From NCBI GenBank assembly GCA_963734895.1, contig CAVTIN010000003.1:67718-131717 (forward strand): DNA of 64,000 bases. The letters are read 5' to 3'. The stretch is from an uncultured Chloroflexia bacterium. Lineage in GTDB: Bacteria; Chloroflexota; Limnocylindria; Limnocylindrales; CSP1-4. A program made the position numbers and the translations under genes. This document shows, in pieces, positions 40,390 to 60,609 of this stretch. Position 1 is the first letter of the stretch; each line of letters begins with the position of its first letter. Under the pieces are notes generated by a model. The model had not been told where the DNA came from. It saw only the letters and a program-made list of their open reading frames with translations, and did not search any database.

Positions 40390-40689
40390 GGTCGTCTCTC
40401 CTCCCGGCGCTGCTCGATCAGGACGGACGCTCGCCCGCGCCACCGACCGTGCCCGGCGGCACAAGGCAGGCGGTCGCCCTCAGATCGCCGCGCCGGTGGT
40501 CGCCGGATGGGGAGACAATCGGGACCTAACGGCCCATGACACAGGGCCGATCGGGACGCCGTACACGGGCCGAACGTCCCGCAGCCTCCAATCCGTCGCG
40601 GGCCCTTGGTGCCGGCGGCTCCGGGCCCGTCCGCGGCAGGCCGAGTGACCTGGCGGCGCGCGACAGGTCCACGCGGTACCCTCGGCCCG

Positions 40690-44292: not shown

Positions 44293-44336
44293 GTCACGGC
44301 GCGCCTCGTAACGTTCTCCGAACGGAACGGGTCCAG
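44293..44336 (+). promoter_or_regulatory. heptamer-repeat element upstream of paralog P1
   Basis: GTCACGG 44293, GTAACGT 44308, CGAACGG 44319 and GGAACGG 44324, followed by CAGAAT (44334-44339) 9 nt before the ATG. 28 of 39 ungapped positions are identical to the P2 upstream block. Confidence 0.5.
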
Positions 44337-44348
44337 AATGCGGAATCG

Positions 44349-45590
44349 ATGACCAGCTCCGTTCGAAACCGCTCGACGACGCCAGCTTTCCCGACGGCCG
44401 CGGAGACAGGTCGTTCGCTTCCCCTACCCGGCCGGATCATCGTTGTGCTGGTGGCCGCGGGCGCCGTCGTCGTCGGCGCACCCAGCGGTGTCGGGCTGCT
44501 GTGGGCGGTCCCGTACGGGGCCGTGGCGACGATCCTGATCGTCCGGAGACCACGACACGCGATCGGCTGGATCCTGCTCGTGCTGGGATGGATGTTCCCG
44601 CTCGCGTCCGCCACGCTCGATATGACGCCGGCCCAGTTCTCAGGTGGCTCCCTGACACCGCTGACAGCGGTCGCGGGCTGGCTCATCGCCACCGCCGGGT
44701 CCGCAGGGTTCGTGCTCTTTGCGACGCTGATGTTCACCTTTCCCTCCGGGCGCTACCCGGGGGGCCGATGGCGCTTCCTGGCGCCCGCGCTGCTCGCCAT
44801 CGCGTCGGCGACAGTCCTGGTCTCGGCGCTCGCGCCGAGGATCAATGTGGGCTTTCAGGGCAACCAGACGAGCGTGTCCGTCGCCAACCCGTTCGCGATC
44901 ACGCCCGGGGCCGCGATCTGGAACGGGATCCCATACGAGCTGAGCTTCATCGTCCAGATCGCCGTCATGGCGATCGCTGCCATCTCGCTCGCGAACCAAT
45001 TCGGTGGGACCAGTGGGATCGAGCGCCAGCAGCTTCGATGGGTCGCCGCCGCGCTCGGCTTCGTCGTGCTCGCCGTGCTCGGCGGCCTGGCACTCGGCGG
45101 GATCTTCCCGGACCTGAGCTCAACGGGCTTCATCTGGATCCCTGCGATGCTGGCCTTCGCGTCAGTTCCCATCGCGGTGGGCGTCGCGATCATGCGCTAC
45201 CGGCTGTACGAGATCGACCGGATCATCAGCCGGACGCTCGGTTGGACCGTCACCACGATCGTCGTGGCGGCGGCCTTCGGCGGCCTGATCGTTGGTCTGC
45301 AGGCGGCGCTCGCGCCGTACACGAGCGAGAGCACCCTCGCGGTCGCGCTCTCGACGCTCATCGCGGCGGCCCTGTTCGGGCGCGTGCATCGCGGCATCCA
45401 GGCGACCGTGGACCGTCGGTTCAACCGGACCCGGGTGGATGCGCAGCGGGCCCTCGACGCGTTCGGCAGCGGGCTGCGCGACGTGACGGCCCTGGACGCG
45501 GTCCATGCCCGCCTCGAGGACACGATCCGGGCGACGGTCCAGCCGCGGGTCGTCGGCGTCTGGACGCGCGCCGGCGGGCCCGGGGAGTAG
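44349..45590 (+). CDS. paralog P1 of a ~10-TM membrane protein family with a conserved C-terminal RYRLYxIDR / VDRRFNR module
   Basis: Motifs RRPRHAIGWILL, FPSGRYPGGRWR, IERQQLRW, MRYRLYEIDRIISRT and VDRRFNRTRVD. Confidence 0.8.
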   Translation: MTSSVRNRSTTPAFPTAAETGRSLPLPGRIIVVLVAAGAVVVGAPSGVGLLWAVPYGAVATILIVRRPRHAIGWILLVLGWMFPLASATLDMTPAQFSGGSLTPLTAVAGWLIATAGSAGFVLFATLMFTFPSGRYPGGRWRFLAPALLAIASATVLVSALAPRINVGFQGNQTSVSVANPFAITPGAAIWNGIPYELSFIVQIAVMAIAAISLANQFGGTSGIERQQLRWVAAALGFVVLAVLGGLALGGIFPDLSSTGFIWIPAMLAFASVPIAVGVAIMRYRLYEIDRIISRTLGWTVTTIVVAAAFGGLIVGLQAALAPYTSESTLAVALSTLIAAALFGRVHRGIQATVDRRFNRTRVDAQRALDAFGSGLRDVTALDAVHARLEDTIRATVQPRVVGVWTRAGGPGE

Positions 45591-45732
45591 GGCGGGCCGC
45601 GTTCGCCCAGTCGGGGTGCCCCAGGCTGACCACGTAACAGGCAGGAACGGCATCGCGACCGGCGACCTGTGGCGAGCCGGTCGCGATGATTGAGGGAGGG
45701 ATACCCGGGCGTCCCCGGCATGGGTGGACGCG

Positions 45733-46377
45733 TCAGTGGCGGCCGCTCATGAACGTGCCGTTGACCTGGTCGGTTGCCCGCTGGGTCACCTGGTCCTTCA
45801 TCGCATCGGCCTGGGCCTGGGTGATGGTCCCGGCGGTGACCTTGGCGGCGAGCTCGTCGAGCCCGTCCTGGACGAGGGCGTCGATGACCTTCTGCGTGTC
45901 GACGTTGTTGGCCTTCGCCACGTCGGCGATCGTCTGGCCATTCTGGAGCGCGGTGTTGAGGTCGGCCTCGGTGATCCCGATCGCCCTGGCGACGACCGAG
46001 GCATCGCTCACGGCTTCGTCGTGGCCGAAGCCGCCGGGGCCACGGTCAGGACCGTCGGGTCCGCGGTGATCGCGGCCGGGTCCGCGGTGATCGCCACCGG
46101 GACCGCCCGCGTCGCCATCGGCCGGCGGATTACCGCTTGCCGTCGGCGCGTTTGGTGTGGCAGGACTGGGCGACGCGGCGTCGGCCGCGAGCGGTCCGAC
46201 GAGCGCGGCCGCGGCAAGGCCGCCGGCGACGATCGTCCCGATCGCGGCGAACCTGAGGTTTCGCCGGCGGCCGGGGCCGGGCGTCACGGACCTACCGGAT
46301 GGCGCCATGGTGGGGCCATTTGACGTCCCTTCTTCGGCAGGCGCGAAGGGCGCCAGGATCTCGTCGTCTCGGGTCAT
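45733..46377 (-). CDS. secreted or membrane-anchored helical-repeat protein (tentatively YckD/DUF2680-like)
   Basis: ATG 46377 (MTRDDEIL). TM/signal anchor LRFAAIGTIVAGGLAAAALVG. Gly/Pro/Arg linker. A tail, GTITQAQADAMKDQVTQRATDQVNG, resembles the YckD-type TxxQA..K repeats. Confidence 0.55.
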   Translation of the reverse strand: MTRDDEILAPFAPAEEGTSNGPTMAPSGRSVTPGPGRRRNLRFAAIGTIVAGGLAAAALVGPLAADAASPSPATPNAPTASGNPPADGDAGGPGGDHRGPGRDHRGPDGPDRGPGGFGHDEAVSDASVVARAIGITEADLNTALQNGQTIADVAKANNVDTQKVIDALVQDGLDELAAKVTAGTITQAQADAMKDQVTQRATDQVNGTFMSGRH

Positions 46378-46510
46378 GGATGGTTCCTTCGAGGTCCGGC
46401 CGGCAGCTGCCGGGTCTGCGGGACGCAGGGTTGCGATCCACGCCCCGGACTCTGGGGCGTCCATCCTTTCGATCCCGTGACGAGCCCGGACGCACTGCCG
46501 AGGGAGCGCC

Positions 46511-49422
46511 CTACCAGGCGACAAGCTTCCAGATCTCCGGCTCCAGCTCGCCGGGGTTCCCACCGACCTCGGCGAAGATCGCCACCGCCTGCTTGAGGTG
46601 CGCCATCGCTTCGTCGGTCCTACCCACGGCGTGAAGCTGGTCCGCGAGGCTGTTCTCGACGGCCGCCTCGAGGTGGCGCTCGCCCGTTCGGCGGCACTCC
46701 TCGAGGGCGGCCTCGAGCAGCGCGATCGCGGCAGCCCGATCGCCGGCGGCTGCCTCGACCAGGGCCAGGGCATTGCGGGCCGCGATCGCCGCCCCTGCAT
46801 CCGGATCCGCCTCCGCCAGGGCGAGACTCTGCCCCAGGGACACCCGCGCGGCGTCCAGATCGCCGGTCTCACGAGCAACCAGCCCCAGAATCCGGTGGGC
46901 GGCGCCGGCACCCGGACCGTCCCCGACCGCCTCGGCGATGCCGAGCGCGCGCGACGCGGCGAGGTGGGCAAGGTCGAGCTCGCCCGCGCGGTGGGCCACG
47001 ACAGCCCGCTCGACGAGCGCCCGCGCGAGAAGATGGGCGCCGGTCGCCGTCGCGCCAAGCTCGAGCGTCGCGACCGCCGCGTCCAGGTGGCTGGCCGCCG
47101 TCGCGAGATCGCCTCGGCGAGCGTGAACCCTCCCGAGCCGGAGCTCGACCCTCGGAAGCTCGTCGTCGGACGTCGCCGCTGCGGCGGCCTCGAGCGCCGC
47201 GATGGCGCCCGCGTAGTCACCCAGCGCCATTCGCACCTCGCCGAGCAGGAGCTGGATCTCGGCGACCTCGGGGTGCCCCAGTGCGATCGCGGTCTCAAGG
47301 TGGGCGGCAGCCTCGCGGTTGGCGAACAGCGACACGGGCCTGGACGCCGGCCTGGCGGAAGGCATCAGCCGCCTCCGCCTCCCGGCCCGCCGCACGCTCG
47401 TGGATCGCGACCTGGACAAGGCGGCCGGGGTCGTCCCGGCCCCCGCCCTCGGCCCGGAGGAGCTCGGCGGTCCGACGATGGAGCAGGCGGCGACGGGCGA
47501 GGCTGGTCGCGTCGTACGCGGCGTCGCGGAGCTTGGCGTGCGCGAAGTCGAAGGCGACCTCCGGAGCCGCCGGGAACCTCGCGGACGATGCCGCGCCGGA
47601 CCAGCTCCTCGAGCGCCGTCACGGTCTCGTCCTCGGAGCGTCCGCTCGCTCCTCGGACGAGCGGCAGGTCGAACGAGCGGCCGATCACGGCGGCGGCCGA
47701 CAGCACCTGTCCGGCCGTCTCGCTGACCGTTGCGAGGCGCTCCCGCAACAGCGCCCTCACGCTTCGGGTGGGACCTTCAACGGTGCTCGTGCCGGCAGCG
47801 AGCGCTTCCACGACGAACAGCGGCAGGCCCTCGCTCTCCTCGAGCAACGCGTCCGCCGCCATCGATGGCCCGCCCATCGTCGACGCCGCGGCAACCAGCC
47901 GCTCGACGTCGTCGCCATCGAGCCGCCGGAGGGGGACGGAAACCGCCGACGGCAGGGCGTCGACGGTCGCCGCGAACGCCGAGGCAAGATCGTCGAGATC
48001 CTCGGGCCGCCACGTGAGCAGGAGCAGCAGTGACCGCGATCCTCGAGACGGCGAGCGAGCCAGGCGAGCGCCTCGCGCGACGCGTCGTCCGCCCACTGGA
48101 TGTCCTCCACCGTGATCAGGCCCACCACCGGACCCGCCACCAGGGCGGCCAGCGCGCCGGCGATCGCCTCGAGAAGGCGAGCGCGTGCGGCCGGCCCGTC
48201 CTCCGCCACACCCCGGACGTCCCCTGCACCTCGCGGATCAGAGAGCTCGGCCGGCAGTGGCACCAGACGCCCGAGCTCGTCGAGGGTGTTGGGCGGCAGC
48301 CGTCGAAGACGTTCGATCGCATCCGGATGGCTGAGCCCGACACGGAGCAGCCCGACGATCACGCCGTAGGCGATGCCCGTCTCGGAGGCGAACGATCGCG
48401 CCACGATCACCGCGCCGCCGTGCCGCGCTCACCTCGGCGCCGAGATCTTCGGCGAGCCTCGACTTGCCGATGCCTGCCTCACCGGTGACGTATGCGACCC
48501 GCCCATCGGGGGCGGCGTCGCGGTGCGTATCGCGCAGCACGGTCATCTCGCGGGCTCGCCCGACCAGTGGCAGGCGGCCCGGGGCCGACGGCGCGGGCAC
48601 GAGGCGCGCGCCCACGGGCGGCGGGAGCTCGCCCGGGTCGCCGGTCCGGGCGGCGGTCCGGACACGCTCGTCGCGGATCGCCTCGTACAGCGCTGTCGTC
48701 TCGGCGAGCGGCGTGACGCCCAGCTCGCGCTCCAGACCCGCGACGCACGCACGGTATTGGCGGATGGCGCCGGCCCGGTCCCCGGATCGGGCGAGGAGAA
48801 GCATCAGCCGGCGCTGTGCAGGTTCGTCGAGCGAGTCGAGCTCCAGTCGCCGGGTCGCCGCGGCCACGGCCGCCGGGAGGTCGCCCTCCGCCTCGGCGGA
48901 GCTGGCGAGCCGGTCCAGCACGCGGGCAACGGTCCGTTCCACCGCAACCGCCCGCGTCGCCCGCCAGTCATCGAAATCCGGGCTGTCGCGGAGGGAGAAC
49001 CCGGACAGGAACGGGCCCCGAGCGGCCGAGGACGCCTCACGGAGGGGGGCGCTCGACGTTTCGGCGTCCGCTGCCTCAACGATCGCGAGGTCCATCCACG
49101 TCCCGGTGGCATCGAGCGCGACCGTGGACCGGTCCACCCGCAGCCATCGGTCACCGAGCGCCGACCGCAGCACGGACAAGGTGCGCCGGAGCGCCCCGCG
49201 GGCGGACTCGTCGTCGGACTCGGGCCAGAGCATGGCGGCCAGCGCCTCGCGGGCGAACGGCCGGCGCTCGGTAGCCAGCAGCGCAAGGATCGCGAGGGCC
49301 TTGCGCGTGTCCACGACGAGCGGCGCGCCATCCACCCGCACCTCGAGCGGTCCGAGCACGCGGATCTCGAGCGTGTCGCCCTGCGCGGCCTGGGGAGGGG
49401 GCGGAGCGGCGGGTCGGGACAT
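46511..49422 (-). pseudogene. AfsR/SARP-family regulator (OmpR-type wHTH + BTAD + P-loop NTPase + TPR) broken by four single-nt frameshifts
   Basis: The pieces lie in four frames. (1) LEIRVLGPLEV..BTAD..GEAGIGKSRLAEDLG. (2) VIVARSFASE..VEDIQWADDASREALAWLARRL. (3) LLLLLTWRPEDLDD..LEELVRRGIVREV. (4) VAFDFAHAKLRDAAY.. then the TPR tail ..FANREAAAHLETAIALG..KLVAW. 2912 nt minus a net 2 gives 970 codons. Confidence 0.85.
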
Positions 49423-49424
49423 CA

Positions 49425-49485
49425 CGCGTAACGGTACCGCGGCGTCACGGGATCTCGTAACGTTTCGGGAACGGTTTCGTCCCAG
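49425..49485. promoter_or_regulatory. heptamer-repeat element in the divergent SARP/P2 intergenic region
   Basis: GTAACGG 49428, GTCACGG 49444, GTAACGT 49457 and GGAACGG 49468. The last two are 11 nt apart. CAGCAT (49483-49488) lies 8 nt before the P2 ATG. Confidence 0.5.
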
Positions 49486-49496
49486 CATGCGGTGCC

Positions 49497-50705
49497 ATGA
49501 TCGCGTCCCAGCAACTGCCCGGCCGCGGCCGCCTGGTCTCCAGGGCCGCTCCAGGAAGCCCCTGGATACGGGTTACCGTCGCAATCGCCGGTCTGCTCGC
49601 CGTGGGCGGCACGGTCGCCCGCTTGTCGGGCGATCCGACGGGCTGGCACCTGTCCCTCGTGTTCCTCGCCACATCGCTCAGCTACCTGGTCGTGGGCGCA
49701 CTGATCGTGGAGCGACGGCAGGGCAACGCGGTCGGGCCGCTCGTCCTGGCGCTCGGGCTGCTGCTGGTCGGGTACGTGACCCTCGATGCCTACATCCGCC
49801 AGCCCGCGGGCGCCTTGGCCGCCGCACATGCCGCGCTCGTCGTGAGCCTGACCGACGGCCCGATGTTCTTCCTGGTGGCGATGCTGTTCCTGGCGTTTCC
49901 GGACGGCCACCTGCCGAGCAGCCGCTGGCGGACCCTGGTCGCCCTCGATGGCGCGATGGCCGCGGCCGTCTTCCTGGGCGCGTTGCTGCGGCCCGGTCGC
50001 TACCCGTTCTATACGTGGCTCGAGAACCCGTTCAACCCGCCGATGACGGTCCTGACCGAGGTCTGGGAGCTCACCTACGGGTTGACGGTCGTGGGTGTCG
50101 CTGCGGCGGCGCTTTCGCTCGTCGGGCGCTGGCGACGCGGTGACCTCGTTGAGCGCGCCCAGCTCAAGTGGGTGGCGGGGGCCGCGACGCTGGCGGCTGC
50201 CGCGATGATCGGCTACGGCGCCGGAGCGGGCCCCAGCGACTATTCGGATGCCGGCGACTTCGCCGTGGGCCTGTCGCTCGGCCTCTTTCCCGTCGCCATC
50301 GGGATCGCGGTCCTGCGGTATCGCCTGTACGAGATCGACCGCCTGATCAGCCGAACCCTGGCCTGGGCCCTCGTGACGGCGATCCTGGTGGGGCTGTTTG
50401 CGATCGTGGTCGTCGGCCTCCAGGCGCTTCTTGCCGGGGCGACGCAGGGCGACACGCTGGCGGTCGCGGCATCGACCCTGCTCGCCGCTGCCCTGTTCCA
50501 GCCGCTGCGCGCTCGAGTCCAGCATGCCGTCGACCGGCGCTTCAACCGCTCACGGATCGACGCAGAGCGGACGGTGGCGGAGTTCTCCGATCGCCTCCGC
50601 GACGAGATCGACCTGGACCGGCTGCACGGCGCCGTCATCGCAACCGCTCGCACCGCGGTTCACCCGGCCGGCGCCGGCCTGTGGCTTCGCCGGGAGGCCG
50701 AATGA
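49497..50705 (+). CDS. paralog P2 of the ~10-TM membrane protein family
   Basis: Motifs FPDGHLPSSRWR, VERAQLKW, LRYRLYEIDRLISRT, FQPLRARVQHAVDRRFNRSRID and LWLR. Confidence 0.8.
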   Translation: MIASQQLPGRGRLVSRAAPGSPWIRVTVAIAGLLAVGGTVARLSGDPTGWHLSLVFLATSLSYLVVGALIVERRQGNAVGPLVLALGLLLVGYVTLDAYIRQPAGALAAAHAALVVSLTDGPMFFLVAMLFLAFPDGHLPSSRWRTLVALDGAMAAAVFLGALLRPGRYPFYTWLENPFNPPMTVLTEVWELTYGLTVVGVAAAALSLVGRWRRGDLVERAQLKWVAGAATLAAAAMIGYGAGAGPSDYSDAGDFAVGLSLGLFPVAIGIAVLRYRLYEIDRLISRTLAWALVTAILVGLFAIVVVGLQALLAGATQGDTLAVAASTLLAAALFQPLRARVQHAVDRRFNRSRIDAERTVAEFSDRLRDEIDLDRLHGAVIATARTAVHPAGAGLWLRREAE

Positions 50706-51046
50706 TGGCGACCACCACCGGGCCGGTGCGCAAGGAGCTCGGCATAGGCGCGACGGCGCACGAGACGCTGCCCCGAGCGGTGGCCGTCATCGTCTACGTG
50801 GCACCGGTCGCGGTGCTCATGCTCCTCCTGGGTGGTGCGTGGGCGGGCGGCGCGCTGGCCCGGGACCTGCTGGTCCCGAACCTTGCCTGGGTCATCACGT
50901 CGTGCGGTGCCGACGCGTTCGGTGCCGGGTTGCGCGAGCAGGTCGATCTGGGCGCCGTATCGAAGAGCACCCTCGCGACGGTTGCGCAGGTGATTGAGCC
51001 CTCGGGTGTCGCGCTGTGGCTTCGTTCCGGACGGGGGACACCGTGA
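50702..51046 (+). CDS. mini-paralog: single-TM protein carrying only the family's C-terminal ~45-aa tail
   Basis: Its ATG overlaps the P2 stop (ATGA). The tail DAFGAGLREQVDLGAVSKSTLATVAQVIEPSGVALWLR aligns with DAFAERLRDQVELGEIHGDIHQTVHSTMRPTHVGMWLR of P6. Confidence 0.5.
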   Translation: MMATTTGPVRKELGIGATAHETLPRAVAVIVYVAPVAVLMLLLGGAWAGGALARDLLVPNLAWVITSCGADAFGAGLREQVDLGAVSKSTLATVAQVIEPSGVALWLRSGRGTP

Positions 51047-52269
51047 TCTCGGGCGTGGCGCGCTCCCCCCGACCCAGGCTGGTCGCTGCAGCCAGCATCG
51101 TGTTCACGGGCACGCTGTGCGTGATCGCCCTTGGCCTGCTCGCGGCCACATGGTCGGTGGAGGTCCCGGGCACGTGGTCCGTCCGCGGATTTCCGATCGC
51201 GATCGCGGGCACCTGCGTGGCAATCGGGGCCATCGTCGTGGTCCGGGTGCAGGGAAACCCGATCGGGTGGCTGTTCCTGGCCGCCGCAATCCTGTCGGCG
51301 ATCGAGGGCGCCTGCGATCAGTACGCGACGCTGGCCCTCATCGCCGAGCCGGGCGCCCATGCCGGAGGAGAGGTCGCAGCCTGGGTCGCCGGCTGGATCT
51401 GGATCCCGGCCATCGCGCTGGTGACCGTGTTCCTGCCGCTGGTGTTCCCGGACGGCCGCCTGCTGAACTCGCGTTGGCGTCCGATCGTTTGGCTCGATGG
51501 CGGGGTGGTGGCGCTCGCGACACTGGGTGCCGCCGTGCTGCCGGGACCACTCGACAACGCCGCCTATCTGTCCAATCCATTCTCCGTCGACATCGGCATC
51601 CGGCCCGAGCTGCGGTGGATCGCCTACCTGCCGCTCATCGTCGCCATCTTCATCGGCGCCAGCGCCCTCGTGCTCCGGTTCCGCCGGTCGACCGGGGAGA
51701 GCCGCCAGCAGCTCAAGTGGCTTGCGTTCAGCGTCGCGGTCTGCGGCCTTGTGTTCTGGGCCGTCCCACTGGGCAAGCTCGGCGCCCTTCCACCGGGCGG
51801 CGCCAAGCTCACCGAGATCGTGGTCACGGCGGGCATCCTGGGCATCCCGATCTCGGCCGGTGTCGCGGTCCTCCGCTACCGGCTGTGGGATATCGACCGG
51901 ATCGTCAGCCGCACCATCAGCTACCTGATCATCAGCGCCGTGCTCGCGATCATGTTCGCGGTGACCGTTGTCGGGCTGCAGGAGGTGTTGAGCCCGCTGA
52001 CGGGCCAGAGCACGGTCTCGGTCGCCGCGGCGACCCTGGTCGCCTTCACCCTGTTCCAGCCGTTGCGCCATCGCGTCCAGGCGGCGGTCGACCGCAGGTT
52101 CAATCGGGCGCACATCGATGCCCAGCGCGTCCTTGACGCGTTTGCGGCCGGGCTGCGCGACGATGCGGCCCTCGACACCCTCAGCGCACACCTCGAGACG
52201 GTCGTCGCACGCTCGATGCAGCCCCGGTCGGTCGCCGTCTGGACCCGCGAGGGAGGGACCGCGCGATGA
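51043..52269 (+). CDS. paralog P3 of the ~10-TM membrane protein family
   Basis: GTG 51043 overlaps the upstream stop (GTGA). Motifs GNPIGWLFL, FPDGRLLNSRWR, ESRQQLKW, LRYRLWDIDRIVSRT and VDRRFNRAHID. Confidence 0.8.
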   Translation: MISGVARSPRPRLVAAASIVFTGTLCVIALGLLAATWSVEVPGTWSVRGFPIAIAGTCVAIGAIVVVRVQGNPIGWLFLAAAILSAIEGACDQYATLALIAEPGAHAGGEVAAWVAGWIWIPAIALVTVFLPLVFPDGRLLNSRWRPIVWLDGGVVALATLGAAVLPGPLDNAAYLSNPFSVDIGIRPELRWIAYLPLIVAIFIGASALVLRFRRSTGESRQQLKWLAFSVAVCGLVFWAVPLGKLGALPPGGAKLTEIVVTAGILGIPISAGVAVLRYRLWDIDRIVSRTISYLIISAVLAIMFAVTVVGLQEVLSPLTGQSTVSVAAATLVAFTLFQPLRHRVQAAVDRRFNRAHIDAQRVLDAFAAGLRDDAALDTLSAHLETVVARSMQPRSVAVWTREGGTAR

Positions 52270-52322
52270 GGGCGTTCCGTCCGTTGACGGTGTCGCGCCC
52301 TTGGACTGCCCGGATGGCGATC

Positions 52323-52384
52323 ATCTCAGAGATCGCCGTTGTGGCCGGACGGGACTGGCAGATCTCAGAGATCGCCGTTGTGGC
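52323..52384. promoter_or_regulatory. two copies of a 23-nt element, each with a central palindrome, 39 nt apart, in the P3-P4 gap
   Basis: ATCTCAGAGATCGCCGTTGTGGC occurs at 52323-52345 and 52362-52384. The second copy reads GATCTCAGAGATC, with perfect 6-bp inverted arms. Confidence 0.45.
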
Positions 52385-52459
52385 AGCCGGGACGGTCGCC
52401 CATGCCTTGGGCCCGAACGGAGCTGTGGTCTGGATCCGGCCAACTCGAGGAGGGACTTG

Positions 52460-53650
52460 ATGAGGCTCGGGCGGTGGCGGGTCATCCCGTATCTCATCCT
52501 GGCAGCGCTCGTCCTTGCGCCCTCCGTCTGGGCTGGTCAGGACTGGAGTGGCTGGTTGATCGTGGGCTCGTTCGCAGCCGTGGGCCTGGTCCTGCTCTGG
52601 CAGCGGCCACGAGAGGTCGTCGGCTGGCTCCTCCTGGGCATCGCGGTCGCCTTCTCCGCGCTCGGGGTCAGTCTCCCGGGCTCCGCGTCCCAGGTCGTCG
52701 ACGGCCACGCTGACACGGGAGTCACCATCTACGCCTGGTTGAGCGCGTGGAGCGCGAGCCTCTTCTTCGGCGAGTTCGTCGCGCTGGCGACGCTGTTCCC
52801 GAGCGGGCGGTTCTCGGCGGGGCGGGTCGGCCTGGCAGGGCGGATCGCGGTGGCCATCCCGCTCGGCTTCAGCGCCGTTCTGGCGTTCGCACCGAGCTGG
52901 CAGATGACCTTCACCGACGGGTCGACGGCGCGGGTGCTCCTGCCGTTCGCGGTCATGCCCGACTGGCCCGGCTGGCCGGTGCTGGACAACCTCGTCTACA
53001 TCGGCGTTCTCGCGGCGCTGGTCATCGCCGTCGGGACTCTGATCGTCCGGTTCCGGCGGACGCGCGGCCCGGAGCGCGAGCAGTACAAGTGGCTGCTCGC
53101 CGCGCTCGCGGCGACCCTGGCGGCAGTGATCTTCGCGTTCGCCGTGATCGTCCTTGTCGACGCCAACGGCACTTGGATGTGGTGGCCGGCAGTGCTCGCC
53201 TACCCGACCATCCCGGCCGCGATCGGGATCGCGATCCGCCGCTATCACCTATACGACATCGACCGGATCGTCAGCCGGTCCGTCTCGTACCTCGCGGTCA
53301 CCGGGCTCCTGGCGGCCGTGTTCGGTGGCCTGGTGGTCGCGCTGCAAGCACTGCTGTCGGGCATCACCCAGGGCGGCACCCTTGCCGTGGCAGCTTCCAC
53401 GCTGGCCGCGTTTGCGCTGTTCCAGCCGCTGCGACGGCGAGTCCAGCTGGTGGTCGACCGCCGGTTCGACCGAGCGCGCGTCGACGCCCAGACGACGGTG
53501 GACGCCTTTGCCGAGCACCTGCGCGACGAGCTGGACCTCGCGACCCTGCACGACTCCCTCGTGGCGACGACCCGTGCGGCCATGCGGCCGGCCAGCACCT
53601 CGCTGTGGCTGCGCAACGTTTCGACATCGCAGGTTGCCGAGGTTCCGTAA
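52460..53650 (+). CDS. paralog P4 of the ~10-TM membrane protein family
   Basis: ATG 52460 is preceded by GAGGAGGGA. Motifs PREVVGWLLL, FPSGRFSAGR, PEREQYKW, IRRYHLYDIDRIVSRS and VDRRFDRARVD. Confidence 0.8.
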   Translation: MRLGRWRVIPYLILAALVLAPSVWAGQDWSGWLIVGSFAAVGLVLLWQRPREVVGWLLLGIAVAFSALGVSLPGSASQVVDGHADTGVTIYAWLSAWSASLFFGEFVALATLFPSGRFSAGRVGLAGRIAVAIPLGFSAVLAFAPSWQMTFTDGSTARVLLPFAVMPDWPGWPVLDNLVYIGVLAALVIAVGTLIVRFRRTRGPEREQYKWLLAALAATLAAVIFAFAVIVLVDANGTWMWWPAVLAYPTIPAAIGIAIRRYHLYDIDRIVSRSVSYLAVTGLLAAVFGGLVVALQALLSGITQGGTLAVAASTLAAFALFQPLRRRVQLVVDRRFDRARVDAQTTVDAFAEHLRDELDLATLHDSLVATTRAAMRPASTSLWLRNVSTSQVAEVP

Positions 53651-53779
53651 CGATGTCCGACGCTCGACCACTACTCACCGGACGAAGTCGACCGGGACAG
53701 CGTCGCGAGCCCAACGTGGAGGTTGGCGGGCGGTCACCGAAGCATCATCGCGGCCTCCGACGACGCACGACCGTGGCCT

Positions 53780-53800
53780 CCGTAACGATTTCGGGACGCG
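53780..53800 (+). promoter_or_regulatory. GTAACG-type heptamer pair upstream of the small secreted protein gene
   Basis: CCGTAACGATTTCGGGACGCG contains GTAACGA 53782 and GGGACGC 53793, 11 nt apart. It is near-identical to the P2 core CGTAACGTTTCGGGAACGG. Confidence 0.4.
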
Positions 53801-53861
53801 CGACCGGTTGAATTTGGCCACGCAGCCCGCCCCCTGGAGCTGCCGCAGTTGGAGGCCACCG

Positions 53862-54281
53862 ATGCGTCGCATTCTCGCCCGCTCGATCCTCGCCGGAACG
53901 CTGATCGCCACCATCGGCGCCGGAACCGCGCTCGGACACGAGTGCTTCATCGCCAGCCGGTCGGACACCGGCAATGTGACCGCAGGCACGCACTCGCGCG
54001 CGTGGGTCTACATCGGGAGCCTGTCTGAGCTGTTTGGGCTCCTGGCCGACGATACCGGCCTTCCACCCCTGTCGGACAGCCAGCTCGCGTGGGCTGTCGG
54101 CGAGGCGAGGGCGGCGGGTATGCCGAACGAGTTCTCGATCTTCATCGGCAACCACACCATTGCCGAAGGCACGCCGGCCATGGCCAAGCACGCGGCTGAT
54201 GGCCGGGGGGTCGACCATCTCGGTGACTGGTTCCCCGCGGCGGTCCAGATCTACATGGCGGCCCTCGCTCCTCACGAGTAG
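53862..54281 (+). CDS. small secreted protein, unknown function
   Basis: GGAGG lies 6 nt upstream of the ATG. The signal peptide is MRRILARSILAGTLIATIGAGTALG. The predicted mature N-terminus starts HECF. Confidence 0.65.
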   Translation: MRRILARSILAGTLIATIGAGTALGHECFIASRSDTGNVTAGTHSRAWVYIGSLSELFGLLADDTGLPPLSDSQLAWAVGEARAAGMPNEFSIFIGNHTIAEGTPAMAKHAADGRGVDHLGDWFPAAVQIYMAALAPHE

Positions 54282-54307
54282 GGACTTCGCAGCGGCGATT
54301 GGCAACG

Positions 54308-54343
54308 GGCCAGGCCCTCCCCCCGGGGGACGAGGGCCTGGCC
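54308..54343 (+). terminator. strong GC hairpin after the small secreted protein gene
   Basis: GGCCAGGCCCTC (54308-54319) and GAGGGCCTGGCC (54332-54343) are perfect 12-bp arms. There is no T-tract, which is common in high-GC actinobacteria. Confidence 0.55.
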
Positions 54344-54429
54344 GCGTCCCCAGCGGCCGTCAGGGTTGCCCCAGCGGCCGACCATGGTGATCAGGAGACG
54401 CGCGAGGCATCCGCGCAGGAGGTCCACCG

Positions 54430-54495
54430 ATGCCAATGAACGAGGCGCCTGTGGCGCGCCAGCCGAAGCAGCGGCTCAACCGCAGCCGACGATGA
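54430..54495 (+). CDS. possible 21-codon leader ORF translationally coupled to P5
   Basis: AGGAGG (54417-54422) lies 7 nt before ATG 54430. The peptide is MPMNEAPVARQPKQRLNRSRR. Its TGA overlaps the P5 ATG (ATGA at 54492-54495). Confidence 0.3.
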   Translation: MPMNEAPVARQPKQRLNRSRR

Positions 54496-55709
54496 CCGGC
54501 GGTCTCTCCGGGACAACGTGGCGACGGCCTGGGGTCTGGGCTGCCGGCGTCCTGCTGGCGAGCACCGTCGGAATGGTGTGCTTCGCGTTCGTCCTCGCGG
54601 TCCTGCCAGGTACCGAGCAGCTGGCCGGTCGACCTGGCGAGACTAACCCGCTCGGGCCGGTCAGTGCCCCGGTCGTGCTGGGCGTGCTCCTCACGTCGCC
54701 TGCCGTTGGCGCGATCCTCGCTGTTCGCCAGCCATCCAACCCGATCGGCTGGCTGTTCCTCCTGATCGGGTTCGGCTTCTCCATCTACGTCTTCTCCTGG
54801 GGGTATGTCGGTCGGAGCGTCGGGCTGGGTGCCGACCTGCCCGGCTATCGCCTGGTCGACTGGGTTGCTTCCTGGTCGATCACCGCTGCAGTCGGGCTGG
54901 CCGTGATCTGGGTCCCTATGTTGTTCCCGGATGGTCACCTGCCAGGCTCGCACTGGCGCCCTGTCGCCTGGGTGGCCGCCATCGGTACCGCCAGTCAGGT
55001 CGCGGTCGAGGCGCTGACGACCAACGGGATCCTGCCCAACCCGATTGCCGCCGACGGTCCCGTGACCGATGCCCTCAAGGCGCTGGGCGTCTTCTTCCTC
55101 GTCGGGGTCCTCGTGGCGATCGCGGCAGTGATCGTTCGTTACCGGCGATCCCGCGGTCCCGAGCGCCAGCAGCTCAAGTGGTTCCTGGCGGCCGCCGGCT
55201 ACATGGCGATCGTGCTCCCCATCGCCGGAGGGACCGGCAATGAGCTGGCCTTCTACCTCTTCATGCTCGGGATGATCGCGATCCCCATCGCCATCGGGAT
55301 CGCGATCCTGCGATACCGGCTGTACGACATCGACCGCCTGATCAGCCGCACCATCGGCTGGGCGCTGGTGACCGGGATCCTGGCCGCCGTGTTCGTGGGC
55401 GTCGTGCTCGCCCTCCAGTCGCTGTTGGCCGGGTTCACCCAGGGCGAGACCCTCGCGGTCGCGGCATCCACGCTGGCCGCGTTCGCGCTGTTCCAGCCGC
55501 TGCGGCGGCGGATCCAGGTTGCGGTCGATCGGCGGTTCGACCGGGCCCGGTACGACGGGCAGCTCACGGTCGATGCGTTTGCGGAGCGGCTGCGGGACGA
55601 GGTGGAGTTCGCCGAGATCGATCGGGACATCCATCGCGTGATCGACGATGCCGTGCGCCCGACCCATGTCGGGATGTGGCTGCGCGAGCGCCAGGGAGCA
55701 GGCCGGTGA
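54492..55709 (+). CDS. paralog P5 of the ~10-TM membrane protein family
   Basis: Motifs SNPIGWLFL, FPDGHLPGSHWR, PERQQLKW, LRYRLYDIDRLISRT and VDRRFDRARYD. The start is uncertain: ATG 54492, ATG 54384 or TTG 54366. Confidence 0.8.
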   Translation: MTGGLSGTTWRRPGVWAAGVLLASTVGMVCFAFVLAVLPGTEQLAGRPGETNPLGPVSAPVVLGVLLTSPAVGAILAVRQPSNPIGWLFLLIGFGFSIYVFSWGYVGRSVGLGADLPGYRLVDWVASWSITAAVGLAVIWVPMLFPDGHLPGSHWRPVAWVAAIGTASQVAVEALTTNGILPNPIAADGPVTDALKALGVFFLVGVLVAIAAVIVRYRRSRGPERQQLKWFLAAAGYMAIVLPIAGGTGNELAFYLFMLGMIAIPIAIGIAILRYRLYDIDRLISRTIGWALVTGILAAVFVGVVLALQSLLAGFTQGETLAVAASTLAAFALFQPLRRRIQVAVDRRFDRARYDGQLTVDAFAERLRDEVEFAEIDRDIHRVIDDAVRPTHVGMWLRERQGAGR

Positions 55710-56893
55710 CGGCAGCCCGCGTCACCCGCCCCGAACCTGCCGTGCCGGCCCGCCGCCGGCCGACCACCTGGCTCGCCCTCGTCCTGCTGGCCATCGCCCT
55801 GGGCATGGTGGGCTTCATGTTCGCCTCGGCCATGCTCCCCGGGCACGAGCGCCTGTCGACCGCGGTGGAGGAGGGGCTGGACGTCATCCCGATCCTCGCG
55901 TCATTGGCGGCGGTCCTTTCGCTTGCCGGCGTCGGGTGCGTGCTGGCGGCGCTTCGTCCACGCAACCCCATCGGCTGGGTCTTGCTGGTCGGGGGCGCGA
56001 CCTTGATGCTCAGCGATTTCACGACGAGCTACGTGGAGCGCAGCACCGTGGTCGAACCCCTTCCCGGTTACCGGCTCCTGGAGACCTTGTCGCCCTTGTT
56101 CGCGTCACTCGCCATCCCACTCCTGACCGTCTGGCTTCCGCTCCTGTTTCCGGATGGGCGGCTGCCAGGGCCGCGTTGGCGGGTCGTGGGCGCGATCGCC
56201 ACGATCTACACGGTCGCTGCCGTCGCGCTGACGCTGGTGCCGGCGCCCGAGCTCGTGGGGGAGGCGATCAGCCCGATCGCAGGGGGATTGATCGCGGCCG
56301 CCCTCGTCGCGCTCATCGTGCGCTTCCGGCGCACGCATGGGGCGGAGCGCCAGCAGGTGAAGTGGTTTCTGGCGGCGGTCGCGCTGCTCGCCGCGTCGAT
56401 GCTCGTGCTGGCAGCAACGCACAACGAGTGGGGGTGGGCGCTCATGCTGCTCTCCCTCGCGTTCCTGCCCATCGCCATCGGCATCGCCGTCCTCCGCTAC
56501 CGGCTGTACGACATCGACCGGCTGGTCAGCCGCACGATCGGGTGGGCGCTGGTGACCGGGATCCTGGCTGCCGTGTTCGTGGGTGTCGTGATCGGCCTCC
56601 AGGCGCTGCTCTCGAGCTTCACCCAGGGTGAGACGCTCGCGGTGGCCGCGTCCACGCTGGTCGCATTCGCCCTGTTCCAGCCGCTGCGACGGCGGGTCCA
56701 GGTTGCGGTCGATCGGCGGTTCGACCGGGCGCGGTACGACGGGCAGCGCACCGTTGATGCGTTTGCCGAGCGGCTGCGCGATCAAGTGGAGCTCGGCGAG
56801 ATCCACGGAGACATCCATCAGACAGTGCACTCGACCATGCGGCCGACACACGTCGGCATGTGGCTTCGGCGCGCCGGCGACCAAGCCCCCTAG
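55706..56893 (+). CDS. paralog P6 of the ~10-TM membrane protein family
   Basis: GTG 55706 overlaps the P5 stop (GTGA). Motifs RNPIGWVLL, FPDGRLPGPRWR, AERQQVKW, LRYRLYDIDRLVSRT and VDRRFDRARYD. Confidence 0.8.
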   Translation: MTAARVTRPEPAVPARRRPTTWLALVLLAIALGMVGFMFASAMLPGHERLSTAVEEGLDVIPILASLAAVLSLAGVGCVLAALRPRNPIGWVLLVGGATLMLSDFTTSYVERSTVVEPLPGYRLLETLSPLFASLAIPLLTVWLPLLFPDGRLPGPRWRVVGAIATIYTVAAVALTLVPAPELVGEAISPIAGGLIAAALVALIVRFRRTHGAERQQVKWFLAAVALLAASMLVLAATHNEWGWALMLLSLAFLPIAIGIAVLRYRLYDIDRLVSRTIGWALVTGILAAVFVGVVIGLQALLSSFTQGETLAVAASTLVAFALFQPLRRRVQVAVDRRFDRARYDGQRTVDAFAERLRDQVELGEIHGDIHQTVHSTMRPTHVGMWLRRAGDQAP

Positions 56894-56922: not shown

Positions 56923-57350
56923 ATGTCATTCACGATCGAGGATACGTACGATGCCCCGGTGGCGACGCAGCAGCGATCTATGCCTGCTACACCGACGCGT
57001 CCACCTGGCACCTCTGGGGCCACAACACGAGCGGCGCGCAGGCCCGGACGCTGGTGGAAGAGGGTGCGATCGTGGACGTCAAGGTCCGCCGCTACCCGTG
57101 GACGTATGCGGTCCGCGTCCTCGAGGTTGATCCGGGTCGGCGCGTGGTCTGCGAGGTGAGGCCCGTCGGCGTGCGGATCGTGCAGTCGTACGAGGTCGAG
57201 CCAATCGCCGACGGAGCCCGGATCCGCCACGTGTTCACGGTCGCGGGTCCGCTCGAGCGCGGGTACAAGCTGCTCGCCGGCCAGTACACCAAGCTGCTCG
57301 CCCGCGAGACCCGCGCCCTGGCCGCCTACGTTCGACGGGGTCGTGCCTGA
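56923..57350 (+). CDS. SRPBCC/START-like (polyketide-cyclase-fold) protein, apparently interrupted by a 1-nt deletion near 56953-56962
   Basis: GGAGAGAG precedes ATG 56923 (MSFTIEDTYDAP). The rest (AAIYACYTDASTWHLWG..VRIVQSYEVEP..) is in another frame. 428 nt plus 1 gives 143 codons. Confidence 0.65.
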
Positions 57351-57375: not shown

Positions 57376-57433
57376 GTTACGTGACGATATCGGAGCGTCA
57401 CCATTGTTCGTAACGATATCCGGACGCTTCCAG
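57376..57433 (+). promoter_or_regulatory. GTAACG-type heptamer cluster upstream of the partner-switching operon
   Basis: GTTACGT 57376 and GTGACGA 57381 come first. GTAACGA 57410 and CGGACGC 57421 follow, 11 nt apart. CAGCTT (57431-57436) lies 12 nt before ATG 57449. Confidence 0.4.
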
Positions 57434-57448
57434 CTTGAGGATCAGGTC

Positions 57449-59099
57449 ATGACAGCACTGACTCGTCCATTCCGGCGCCTCCTTCGCCGGCCCGCGCCAG
57501 ACGGCCGCCGGCTTCGCCGTCGCGCCGCCCGCCGAATGCCTGCCGAGCAGCCCGGCGTGTCCATCGACATCCCGGAGACCGACCCGCTGTTCGCCTACCT
57601 GCAGTCGGCACCCGGGCCCGGTGGATCTCTTGCGCCTGGAGCTGGCGTCGCCGGCCCTCACCGAGCTCCGCGAGGCCGGCGTGGCGCTTGTCGTGCCGCT
57701 GGTGACCCAGGGTGAGCTGATCGGCACCCTCAACCTCGGACCACGGCTGTCCGAGCAGGAATACTCCACAGACGACCGCCGGCTCCTGGCCACGCTCGCC
57801 GCCCAGGCCGCGCCCGCCATCCGCGTCGCCCAGCTCGTACGCGAGCAGGCCGCCGAGGCCGCGGAGCGCGAGCGGTACCAGCAGGAGCTCAAGGTCGCGC
57901 AGCTGATCCAGCAGCAGTTTCTGCCGCGCGAGCTGCCCAACTTGCCCGAGTGGCAGATCGCCGCGTACTACGGCCCGGCGCGTGTTGTCGGCGGCGACTT
58001 CTACGACTTCATCGACCTCGGGGACGGCAGGATCGGCGTCGTGGTCGGCGACGTGACCGACAAGGGCGTGCCGGCGGCGCTGGTCATGGCCCGAACCCAC
58101 TCCATTCTGCGCGCCGAGGCGCCGCGCCTGGTCGAGCCCGGCAAGGTGCTCGCTCGCGCCAACGAGCTGCTGGTGCCGGAGATGCCGGCCCGCATGTTCG
58201 TGACCTGCCTTTACGGCGTCCTGGAGCCCGCGACCGGCCGCTTCGTGTTCGCGAACGCTGGCCACAACCTGCCCTACGTCCGGACACCGGATGGCGTCAT
58301 CGAGCTTCGGGCAACCGGCCTGCCGCTCGGCCTCATGCCGGGCATCGAGTACGAGGAGACCGAGGGCTCCGTGGGCCAGGGCGATGCGATGCTGCTCTAC
58401 TCGGATGGCCTCGTAGAGCAGCACGGGCCGGGCCGCGAGATGTACGGCTTCCCGCGCCTGCGCAGCGCGATGGAAGGTGCCGATGCCGGGAGCGAGCTCC
58501 TGGACCGGCTGCTCGAGGAGCTGAAGGCGTTCCAGGGTTCGGAAGTGGAGCAGGAAGACGACATCACGCTCGTCACCCTCCGACGGTCGGCGGGTGTGAC
58601 CGAGGGGGCGTGGTCCGAGGTTCGCCCCGAGGTCGAGGTCACCCGTGACGACGAGCCGTCCGAGGTCCTCGCTGCAGAGCCCCTGCTCACGTTCACGATC
58701 CAGGGCGCGATCGGCAACGAGCGCGCGGCCATGCAACGGGTGGCCGACGTGGTCGCGCCGCTGGGGCTGGAGCCTGCGCGACTCGAGCGCCTCAAGACCG
58801 CCGTCGCCGAGACCGTGATGAACGCGATCGAGTACGGATCGCAGGGCGATCCTGAGGTTCCCGTGGACGTGCGCGTGGACGCCGATGACGCGGCGATCCG
58901 CATCCGGGTCACGGACCGGGCCCTGTCCGGACCGGTGCCCGACGTCGAGATGCCTGACCTGAACGCCAAGCTCGAGGGTCTCCAGAAGCCCCGTGGCTGG
59001 GGCCTGTTCCTGATCCGCCACATGGTCGACGGCATGGACGTGCACGTCGCCGATGGCCTGCAGACCGTCACCCTCACCCTCGCCCGGGACGGGCGCTGA
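57449..59099 (+). CDS. GAF + PP2C (SpoIIE/RsbU-type) phosphatase fused to an RsbW-like HATPase anti-sigma-kinase domain; 1-nt insertion near 57611-57620
   Basis: ATG 57449 (MTALTRPF..DPLFAYLQSAPGP) shifts frame into VDLLRLELASPAL.. PP2C motifs GGDFYDF, GDVTDKGVPAA, YSDGLVE and DDITLV are present. The C-terminal ERLKTAVAETVMNAIEYG..GWGLFLIRHMVD matches an RsbW-type domain. 1651 nt minus 1 gives 550 codons. Confidence 0.8.
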
Positions 59100-59114
59100 C
59101 CGATGGAGGCAGCC

Positions 59115-59477
59115 ATGAACGAGCAGCGGCTCGACATCGAGGTCGTCACATCGACCGCCGGCGAGGCCCGGCTCGCGATGCGCGGCGACGTGGACATCGC
59201 GGCGGACGAGGCGCTTGCCACCGCGTACGCGACCGCGGCGGCAGGGGGCGCCACGCGCGTGGTCCTCGACTTCAGGAGCGTCGACTACATCAACTCGACC
59301 GGCATTGCGCTGATCGTCCGGCTGCTCGCAGAGGCCCGCCGCGATCACCGAGAGGTGATTGCCGAGGGGCTCACCGACCACTACCGGGAGATCTTCCGGA
59401 TCACCCGGCTGTCCGATTACCTCACCATCGCCGACGGCGTCTCGGCAGGCAGCGTTCCAGAGGAGGGCAACCGATGA
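59115..59477 (+). CDS. STAS-domain anti-sigma-factor antagonist (RsbV-like) 1
   Basis: The VVLDFRSVDYINSTGIALIVRLL core has the conserved Ser in DYINSTG. GGAGG precedes ATG 59115. ATG 59103 is also possible. Confidence 0.8.
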   Translation: MNEQRLDIEVVTSTAGEARLAMRGDVDIAADEALATAYATAAAGGATRVVLDFRSVDYINSTGIALIVRLLAEARRDHREVIAEGLTDHYREIFRITRLSDYLTIADGVSAGSVPEEGNR

Positions 59478-59818
59478 CCGACACCACGATCGACGTCAGC
59501 CAGCATGGCGATGCCGCGATCCTCCACGTCCACGGTGAGATCACCGGCGGCAGCGAGCCCGCACTGATGGGCGCCTACGGCCAGGCCGGCGACGCGCGAT
59601 CCATCGTGCTGGACTTCGGCGATCTCGAGTACATGAACAGCGGTGGGATCGGGCTGCTGGTGACGCTCCTCGTGCGCACGAAGCGGGCCGGCCAGAAGCT
59701 GCTCGCCGTTGGCCTGACCGAGCACTACCGCCAGATCCTGGCGCTGACCCGTCTCGACGAGGCGATCTCAATCCACGACGACGAGCCTTCGGCCCTGGCC
59801 GCAGCCGCGTCCGCCTGA
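59474..59818 (+). CDS. STAS-domain anti-sigma-factor antagonist (RsbV-like) 2
   Basis: IVLDFGDLEYMNSGGIGLLVTLL core. Its ATG overlaps the upstream stop (ATGA) and is preceded by GGAGGG. Confidence 0.8.
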   Translation: MTDTTIDVSQHGDAAILHVHGEITGGSEPALMGAYGQAGDARSIVLDFGDLEYMNSGGIGLLVTLLVRTKRAGQKLLAVGLTEHYRQILALTRLDEAISIHDDEPSALAAAASA

Positions 59819-60572: not shown

Positions 60573-60609
60573 TCGCGGCACGTCCGTCGCGGAGCCCGCG
60601 GTGACGCCC

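Follow-up and report, generated by a model that had tools for sequence, protein, structure and literature searches.

The window analyzed here, a stretch of 64,000 nt from contig CAVTIN010000003.1 of an uncultured Chloroflexia bacterium with a G+C content of ~71%, carries an array of six full-length paralogous membrane protein genes (P1 to P6) and one remnant copy, next to genes for a partner-switching enzyme and two STAS proteins. Our analysis suggests that these membrane proteins represent the input module of a class of sensor histidine kinases, encoded separately from any kinase, and we lean towards the reading that they are diversified membrane receptors which feed one partner-switching module.

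All six full-length genes were found as open reading frames (ORFs) on the + strand at the positions given in the original prediction and encode proteins of 395–413 aa: P1 (44349..45590, 413 aa), P2 (49497..50705, 402 aa), P3 (51043..52269, 408 aa), P4 (52460..53650, 396 aa), P5 (54492..55709, 405 aa) and P6 (55706..56893, 395 aa). The assignments are based on the translated ORFs and an alignment of the seven window copies (alignment A1), together with a family hidden Markov model (HMM) for P1, P2, P3 and the remnant, a structure model for P4 and a database search for P5. The remnant (50702..51045, +; 113 aa), in which the C-terminal tail alone is recognizable, covers positions 354–395 of the family profile, i.e., the last ~40 residues. 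Several features that had been read from the sequence were confirmed, including the overlaps indicative of translational coupling (ATGA between P2 and the remnant, GTGA between the remnant and P3 as well as between P5 and P6) and the stronger divergence of the N-terminal half, with paralog identities of 27–41% before the RYRLYDIDR motif versus 47–80% in the C-terminal ~130 aa after it. In A1, each of the six full-length copies contains the predicted motifs in the same order, albeit with small deviations in P1, P3 and P4, and in an alignment of 125 diverse family sequences (A2) it is a signature of the whole family. The deviations comprise LFGRVHRGIQ in place of LFQPLRxR in P1, FPSGRFSAGRVG (without the WR) and RRYHLYDIDR in P4, and a C-terminal end that reads VWTR in P1 and P3. 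All six proteins end 5–15 residues past the WLR motif.

The statement that the tails of P5 and P6 are nearly identical proved too strong, since they share 78% amino acid and 80% nucleotide identity over the last 120 codons. The identity of P5 and P6 at third codon positions is 0.68–0.78 in the 3′ part (last ~360 nt) versus 0.32–0.52 in the 5′ part. As this increase is confined to the 3′ module, it indicates that the sequence for the constant cytoplasmic module has been homogenized by gene conversion between the adjacent paralogs, beyond what selection alone would produce; accordingly, the 3′ third of P6 appears homogenized with P5.

None of the six paralogs matched a Pfam-A or NCBIfam model above cut-off, so that kinase, cyclase and transporter domains are all lacking at these thresholds, as anticipated from the absence of a recognizable output domain. 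The sole hint in these scans was a weak match (E = 4.5e-5) between P4 and the PrsK kinase model at its membrane/GAF junction. The six proteins cannot be counted as histidine kinases, as they show no HisKA or HATPase_c match and contain neither a dimerization and histidine phosphotransfer (DHp) domain nor an ATPase domain, and Pfam revealed in none of them the C-terminal STAS domain that characterizes RsbR-type stressosome sensors. A sequence-profile search of the PDB with the family found nothing, and we found no paper that describes the family or its gene cassette. In contrast to this lack of annotation, a word-indexed database search with P5 gave >7,962 matches, nearly all of them ~400-aa “hypothetical proteins”, and an HMMER scan of 1.84 billion cluster representatives (clusters at 50% identity) with P4 retrieved 18,264 proteins at E ≤ 1e-3, of which 2,840 remained at E ≤ 1e-30. 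The P4 matches have, with few exceptions, a length of 380–430 aa and are aligned through the very end of the query, including the same WLR terminus. Because nearly all family matches share this length and end, the ~400-aa form without a further domain appears to be the normal architecture of the family and not a local truncation. Longer members (478–929 aa) carry no recognizable additional domain, and at least one of them (P0122), with two separate matching stretches, has the appearance of a tandem fusion.

A relationship to kinases emerged from a tblastn search of annotated plasmids, which yielded matches on genes for “GAF domain-containing sensor histidine kinases” of Streptomyces and Deinococcus. 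These kinases consist of a multi-transmembrane N-terminus, a compact GAF-like domain, HisKA_3 and HATPase_c. Alignment of the A2 profile to the Streptomyces kinase WP_138957284 by hhalign gave a probability of 99.9% and E = 4e-37 over 343 aligned columns, which span family columns 46–398 and kinase residues 71–414, with every signature motif aligned. The motifs shared by kinase and family are, in order, RRPxNPxGW, FPxGxLxSxRWR, NPxG, RxRxxxGxxRxQLxW, LRxxLxDIDR and QPLRxxxQ. Based on this near-full-length profile alignment with collinear motifs, the family corresponds to the membrane input module of GAF-HisKA_3 kinases plus the first helices and strand of the GAF-like region that follows. The family proteins end before the beta-hairpin and helix that Pfam best recognizes in the GAF-like region of the kinase. 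Similarity to the HisKA_7TM model (PF16927, gathering score 28.6 bits) is marginal: none of the six paralogs matches at E ≤ 1, a precomputed match exists for seven of the 120 best relatives from the P5 search, and a related kinase reaches 16.7 bits (E = 0.007), which is below the gathering score.

The kinases WP_138957284 (Streptomyces sp. YIM 121038) and WP_015231682 (Deinococcus peraridilitoris) thus have the same module of ten transmembrane (TM) helices with the same motif order, but they differ from the window proteins in possessing DHp and ATPase domains and a response regulator as neighbor, whereas the window proteins are encoded in tandem arrays beside PP2C and STAS genes. The kinase membrane module has itself no known ligand and at best a weak resemblance to HisKA_7TM. 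Placement of all six proteins in a functionally characterized family, which would have spoken against the original prediction, was therefore not observed, as the kinase input module is itself uncharacterized and the cassette contains no separate kinase half. On a plasmid of Streptomyces sp. YIM 121038 (locus L084, 725–5552), two adjacent kinases with the membrane module of the family are followed by a single NarL-type response regulator; therefore, the full-length kinase relatives also occur as tandem paralogs.

The structure of P4 was modeled by AlphaFold2 with alignment A2 at a mean confidence (pLDDT) of 87 and a predicted template-modeling score (pTM) of 0.77. The model contains ten long helices, in agreement with the ~10 TM helices that had been proposed, an outer beta-hairpin between helices 5 and 6, and at the C-terminus three cytoplasmic helices followed by a less confident terminal segment. 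Both termini are located inside, based on the distribution of lysine and arginine, which account for 5 of 21 residues in the cytoplasmic loops versus 1 of 63 in the outer loops. Conservation in A2 follows this topology, with a column information of 2.8 bits in loops, 2.5 bits in TM halves and 2.5 bits in the tail on the cytoplasmic side versus 1.7 bits in TM halves and 1.3 bits in loops on the outer side. A dozen arginines as well as D268, D333 and D342 on the cytoplasmic face are invariant or nearly so, and on the outer side conservation is limited to NPxG in the loop of the hairpin. Taken together, the kinase-input homology and the conservation asymmetry are in line with the original view that the family is sensor-like and diversified, its outer face being variable and its cytoplasmic module constant.

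To place the array in a wider context, relatives were collected from one genome per species; 577 were returned and 80 loci were kept, mostly from Chloroflexota (Limnocylindria and related) and Actinomycetota (Rubrobacteraceae, Acidimicrobiia, Thermoleophilia, Gaiellaceae and Nocardioidaceae). Many of these loci are long-read metagenome bins that have fragmented genes themselves. Same-strand tandem arrays of 2–8 copies were detected with the family HMM in 50 of 81 loci. Searches of the loci for the neighbors present in the window identified the PP2C phosphatase in 41, the two STAS genes in 37, the conserved protein u in 35, the regulator in 33 and the oxidase in 30 loci. The usual order is a divergent regulator, the array, phosphatase, STAS, STAS, u and oxidase, and in some Actinomycetota the array is placed after the oxidase instead. 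Of the 21 multi-copy arrays flanked by ≥4 kb on either side, 17–18 have the full cassette (phosphatase, two STAS genes, u, oxidase and a SARP regulator), and its domain content was confirmed in the precomputed gene tables of three long contigs.

Comparison across genomes also shows how the copies are related. Paralogs within the window are 35–54% identical, and each of them, the P5/P6 pair excepted, is more similar to a copy from another genome than to any other window copy. The closest relatives of the individual paralogs, such as those of P2 (66% identity), P3 (72%) and P4 (74%), are found in different genomes and at different array positions. The copies thus appear to be old lineages that have been gained, lost and shuffled, a birth-and-death pattern typical of receptor families.

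Alignment of the intergenic regions between regulator and array revealed a shared element, CGTAACG(A/T)T-N5-(A/G)ACG, which comprises two related hexamers 11 nt apart. The window contains four exact copies, all on the + strand, compared to 0.18 expected even if one mismatch is allowed. They are located 24 nt before the ATG of P1 (CGTAACGTTCTCCGAACG, 44307..44324, +), 23 nt before the ATG of P2 (CGTAACGTTTCGGGAACG, 49456..49473, +), 63 nt before the gene of a small secreted protein and thereby ahead of the unit formed by this gene, P5 and P6 (CGTAACGATTTCGGGACG, 53781..53798, +), and 23 nt before the ATG of the phosphatase gene (CGTAACGATATCCGGACG, 57409..57426, +). P2 and the phosphatase gene each have a degenerate second box as well (at 49427 and 57380, respectively), 29 nt upstream of the first. 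Across 1.34 Mb of loci we counted 75 exact copies, of which 73 are on the gene strand and 71 lie at most 450 nt ahead of a membrane-family gene (39 copies), phosphatase gene (28) or u (4). Of the orthologous phosphatase genes, 38 of 40 are preceded by the box, as are 55 of the 97 family genes that are solo or first in their array, versus only 3 of 140 internal ones. The element is shared by about 50 further loci, and among its carriers are solo family genes distant from every cassette.

SARP-dependent promoters are characterized by direct repeats with an 11-bp periodicity, of which the 3′ repeat lies 8 bp from the −10 element (PMC10936776). The geometry of the box fits this rule, with repeats of 11-bp periodicity and a 3′ core 8–9 bp from a −10-like hexamer. 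At P1, 8 nt separate the hexamer CAGAAT from the preceding 8-bp core of the downstream repeat and another 8 nt separate it from the ATG that follows, and in all three tightly spaced promoters the hexamers (CAGAAT, CAGCAT and GAGGAT) follow this 8-bp core at a distance of 8–9 bp and precede the ATG by 6–8 nt. A −10-like hexamer this close to the start codon implies leaderless transcripts, which we predict for the P1, P2 and phosphatase genes. Given the positions of the shared boxes, the array would be divided into at least three transcription units, namely P1, which on the far side of the regulator gene forms a unit of its own, P2-remnant-P3-P4, and small gene-P5-P6, and these membrane-gene units would be co-regulated with the switch operon. 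The SARP encoded in the cassette is presumably the factor that binds the box.

This regulator is an AfsR-like large SARP (46511..49401, −; divergent from P2), in which Pfam identifies a winged helix-turn-helix/BTAD region, an AAA_16 NOD domain and a TPR domain; the BTAD match (E = 7e-16), with AAA_16 and TPR behind it, qualifies it as a SARP-domain protein. Its gene contains four frame changes (at ~48425, 48025, 47560 and 47338), and its orthologs in two comparison loci (L082 and L083) are intact with 952–971 aa. Downstream of the array, the partner-switching enzyme (57450..59099, +) combines a GAF-like domain, a PP2C (SpoIIE) domain and an RsbW-like HATPase_c_2 domain according to Pfam. It starts at the ATG at 57450 and has one frame change of a single base near 57615. 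Orthologs of the enzyme share a conserved N-terminal basic peptide (MTxLTRPIRRLLGR; consensus MTxLTRPxRRLLxR), which is followed by a low-complexity, disordered linker of 30–50 aa and a short, very highly conserved GAF-like domain. The PP2C domain (PF07228, E = 1.6e-50) has the motifs GGDFYD, GDVTDKG and DDIT; in the RsbW-like domain (PF13581, E = 4.6e-20), the N-box ExxMNAIExG and the G2-like PRGWGLFLI are conserved in 25 orthologs and the G1 box is partly conserved. The best solved relative of the enzyme is Rv1364c (PP2C and kinase, E = 2e-14), and the next is SiaA.

Two STAS proteins, the first of the anti-sigma-antagonist type, are encoded directly downstream (STAS protein 1, 59103..59477, +; STAS protein 2, 59474..59818, +; both identified by Pfam). 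Both retain a phosphorylatable serine at the usual phosphorylation site (YINSTG and YMNSGG, respectively) and thus have the hallmark of antagonists as judged from sequence; both also match the MlaB model weakly. The next gene encodes protein u (59832..60572, +; 246 aa), which is 80–94% identical across >120 clusters and has 3,256 database matches, and for which no relative was found in Pfam, NCBIfam or the PDB. The closest named relatives of u, like those of the membrane protein family, belong to Candidatus Limnocylindrales. A CrtI/CrtO-like FAD oxidoreductase (60412..62040, +; Pfam), whose true start is probably near 60616, is the last conserved gene of the cassette.

Two smaller genes are associated with the array. 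A predicted secreted protein of 139 aa with a signal peptide and without a Pfam match is encoded inside it (53862..54281, +), and a homolog is found in locus L014 (11084–11578) between the last membrane gene and the phosphatase gene. A small SRPBCC/Polyketide_cyc2-like protein (56924..57350, +; one frame change near 56970) is encoded between P6 and the phosphatase gene, and its ortholog sits within the array of L082. Upstream of the cassette, the window contains a gene for a SnoaL-like small protein (43961–44254, +) and a TldD/PmbA pair (40606–43499, +). These genes flank the cassette in several related loci as well (e.g., L083, L004 and L012), and local synteny therefore reaches past the system. 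PADLOC defense-system models gave no real match to the cassette proteins, the oxidase match to a Rossmann motif being generic, and an anti-phage defense system was rejected as a candidate on these grounds.

In the reading we favor, the six proteins would be stand-alone membrane sensor modules, each a 10-TM bundle with both termini in the cytoplasm that is cut before the transmitter domain. The complete system would consist of 1–8 such receptors, one GAF-like/PP2C/RsbW-like enzyme, two STAS proteins, u, the CrtI-like oxidase and the AfsR-like SARP. Each paralog would detect a different extracytoplasmic or membrane cue via its variable outer loops and outer helix halves, and the signal would pass via the invariant arginine-rich cytoplasmic face and the tail to the single switch enzyme, where the conserved N-terminal peptide or the GAF-like domain is the most plausible contact site. 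Receptor input would then set the balance of phosphatase and kinase activity on the STAS proteins, which are presumably phosphorylated and dephosphorylated by this enzyme. The SARP would drive leaderless transcription of the receptor units and of the switch operon from the shared boxes, so that the whole set would form one regulon, and the switch may feed back on the SARP. A more far-reaching version, which we put forward tentatively and consider doubtful, is a “plug-in receptor array”, in which many interchangeable kinase-less 10-TM receptors, derived from histidine-kinase input modules and evolving by birth and death, dock on one PP2C/RsbW-like/STAS switch that controls the SARP and hence transcription of the receptors themselves. 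That the membrane proteins are partnered with the adjacent regulator and partner-switching genes had been suggested from the window, and conserved synteny in two phyla and the shared promoter now favor such a link at the genetic level; a physical coupling of the membrane proteins to the phosphatase would go beyond this.

Several observations weigh against diversified receptors that feed the switch. The contact between membrane proteins and switch enzyme is one that we infer, and conserved synteny cannot separate input from output. The cassette gene tables list neither a sigma factor nor any other evident target for the RsbW-like domain, and no ligand or pocket was identified in the P4 model: Foldseek searches of the PDB returned matches to 7-TM proteins resembling G-protein-coupled receptors alone, with a TM-score of ~0.3 and a root-mean-square deviation of ~10 Å, i.e., a merely generic 7-TM resemblance. 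The cassette is found beside only 1 of 19 well-flanked solo family members, many of which still carry the box, and no recurrent neighbor family was found around the solo members. Moreover, the frame changes may mean that the system is decaying in this genome, or they may be indel errors of the assembly. None of the six sites (four in the SARP, one in the SRPBCC-like and one in the phosphatase gene) lies within a long homopolymer, and the six membrane genes, both STAS genes, u, the oxidase gene and the flanking TldD/PmbA genes (~13 kb of neighbors) are intact.

One possible mode of contact was assessed by structure modeling. The tail of the membrane proteins aligns with the first part of the kinase GAF-like region and the N-terminal domain of the phosphatase matches the GAF profile only from position ~44 onward; therefore, the tail was tested as completing the GAF-like domain of the phosphatase. 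A chimera of the P6 tail and the phosphatase N-terminal region was modeled by AlphaFold2, using six window-derived chimeras and database phosphatase fragments as unpaired input. The short GAF-like domain was folded in the model (pLDDT 86–96), but the tail was not docked, with a tail-strand pLDDT below 50 and a pTM of 0.48, which also counts against the receptor reading, although with only six unpaired tail sequences this is a weak test. With a disordered tail strand and no defined inter-domain arrangement, complementation of a split GAF domain is unsupported. Judged by their Pfam coordinates, both the tail and the beginning of the phosphatase domain may instead represent one and the same helix-strand GAF element, in which case they would not be complementary.

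The direction-blindness of synteny would equally permit the membrane proteins to be the output of the switch, i.e., transporters, channels or membrane enzymes that are gated by the phosphorylation state of the STAS proteins and perhaps tied to the lipid-binding SRPBCC-like protein, the oxidase and u. Models for such an arrangement are the STAS domains that gate SulP/SLC26 transporters and MlaB, which gates MlaFE. Operon linkage with the STAS proteins, a carotenoid-desaturase-type oxidase and SRPBCC proteins would fit, as would the weak MlaB-model matches of the STAS proteins, and the conserved arginine-rich cytoplasmic face could dock a phosphorylated STAS protein. However, homology to the input region of sensor kinases extends over the entire protein, no transporter or enzyme family was matched in Pfam, NCBIfam or the PDB, and a fast-evolving outer face and a copy number of 1–8 fit receptors better than a conserved transport pathway, so that we regard an output role as rather unlikely. 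A pure scaffold, in which the proteins merely tether the switch enzyme and the STAS proteins, possibly as hetero-oligomers, and sensing is left to the GAF-like domain of the enzyme, could draw on the very high conservation of that domain, on the location of the constrained part of the membrane proteins at the cytoplasmic face and on the translational coupling of several paralogs. Yet a simple anchor needs neither ten TM helices nor a conserved outer NPxG hairpin nor the upkeep of anciently diverged paralogs whose outer faces vary, and the variation of array composition between genomes is contrary to a defined hetero-oligomer; we judge this role to be distinctly improbable.

It is highly improbable that the proteins are decoys, i.e., kinase-less relics that heterodimerize with full-length GAF-HisKA_3 kinases encoded elsewhere and thereby damp or tune them. 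Despite the close homology to the kinase membrane part, including the start of the GAF-like region, and the existence of paired kinases of this type (L084), the cassettes examined contain neither such a kinase nor a cognate response regulator, the ~400-aa form is by far the dominant one in a very large family, and the genes are co-regulated with a PP2C operon and not with a two-component system. Mis-assembly of fewer genes into an array, a possibility raised with the original prediction, deserves almost no credence. Frame changes in several neighboring genes mean that the assembly is possibly imperfect, but the six copies share only 65–88% DNA identity in their best-conserved 300 nt, which excludes duplication or expansion by the assembly, their N-terminal protein halves are as diverged as stated above, and comparable arrays are present in dozens of independent assemblies. 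Among these readings, we place most weight on receptors that feed one switch.

With regard to known systems, the membrane proteins are closest by descent to the GAF-HisKA_3 membrane input region and closest by logic to the stressosome and to SpoIIE, both of which are non-homologous. In the Bacillus stressosome, RsbR paralogs with a variable sensing part and a constant signaling part feed one partner-switching cascade; RsbR is cytoplasmic, its constant part is a STAS domain, and it assembles with RsbS and RsbT. The window proteins resemble RsbR in being several paralogous candidate sensors with variable and constant parts beside one partner-switching cascade, but they differ in being 10-TM membrane proteins without a STAS domain or detectable homology to RsbR. 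In Bacillus SpoIIE, a 10-TM domain is fused to a PP2C domain that dephosphorylates the STAS protein SpoIIAA. The cassette likewise combines a 10-TM part, a PP2C domain, a STAS substrate and an RsbW-type kinase in what would be one functional unit, with the difference that separate genes, present in multiple copies, supply the membrane part; the membrane proteins showed no detectable similarity to the SpoIIE model TIGR02865. Background on the RsbR paralogs of the Bacillus stressosome is also found in PMC11821858.

The switch enzyme itself is similar to Rv1364c of M. tuberculosis (PDB 3ke6) and to the Pseudomonas SiaA/B/C system, which also combine a sensor domain, PP2C and an RsbW-like kinase with STAS proteins. 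Rv1364c differs in having a PAS rather than a GAF-like domain and its own fused STAS domain, and SiaA is equipped with a membrane anchor itself; a link to a separate array of membrane receptors or to a SARP regulator is known for neither. The regulator shares with AfsR, the large SARP of Streptomyces (PMC10936776), the SARP-NOD-TPR domain order and promoter boxes that obey the SARP rule. In contrast to AfsR, the box reads GTAACG / GGRACG, unlike the afs box, and the predicted targets are signaling genes in Chloroflexota and non-streptomycete Actinomycetota and not an antibiotic pathway. Thus, partner-switching signaling is known, and the new aspects are the separable, multi-copy membrane input modules and the AfsR-like regulon.

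Apart from the cassette, the window contains two further sets of repeats. Three tandem 300-bp units are found at each of 4334–5233 and 8058–8957, with 95–100% identity both inside each gene and across the two genes, which are ~3.7 kb apart. The units account for the triple CWB2 cell-wall-binding domains with which a GH18 enzyme (4321–7812, −) and a peptidase C25-like protein (8048–10375, −) end at their C-termini, and their identity reflects either concerted evolution or assembly collapse. A 93-bp tandem repeat is located at 35376–35569 (2.1 copies, 98% identity).

With >18,000 clusters at 50% identity, the family described here is among the larger unnamed membrane protein families, and neither Pfam nor NCBIfam has a model dedicated to it. 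Its members are concentrated in those soil Chloroflexota and Actinomycetota for which metagenomes are the main source of knowledge, and protein u is another dark family tied to the same system. A kinase-less input module that is co-encoded and co-regulated with partner switching offers a hypothesis for the function of thousands of “hypothetical proteins”. A system with separable, multi-copy membrane receptors would be a convenient model for the way in which partner-switching phosphatases outside Bacillus receive environmental input. The SARP-type box defines a candidate regulon and would extend SARP-type control beyond antibiotic clusters and beyond Actinomycetota. If the plug-in array should prove true, it would join two-component input modules, partner switching and SARP regulators, which are normally separate, in abundant but poorly studied soil phyla such as Limnocylindria-type Chloroflexota, Rubrobacteria, Acidimicrobiia and Nocardioidaceae.

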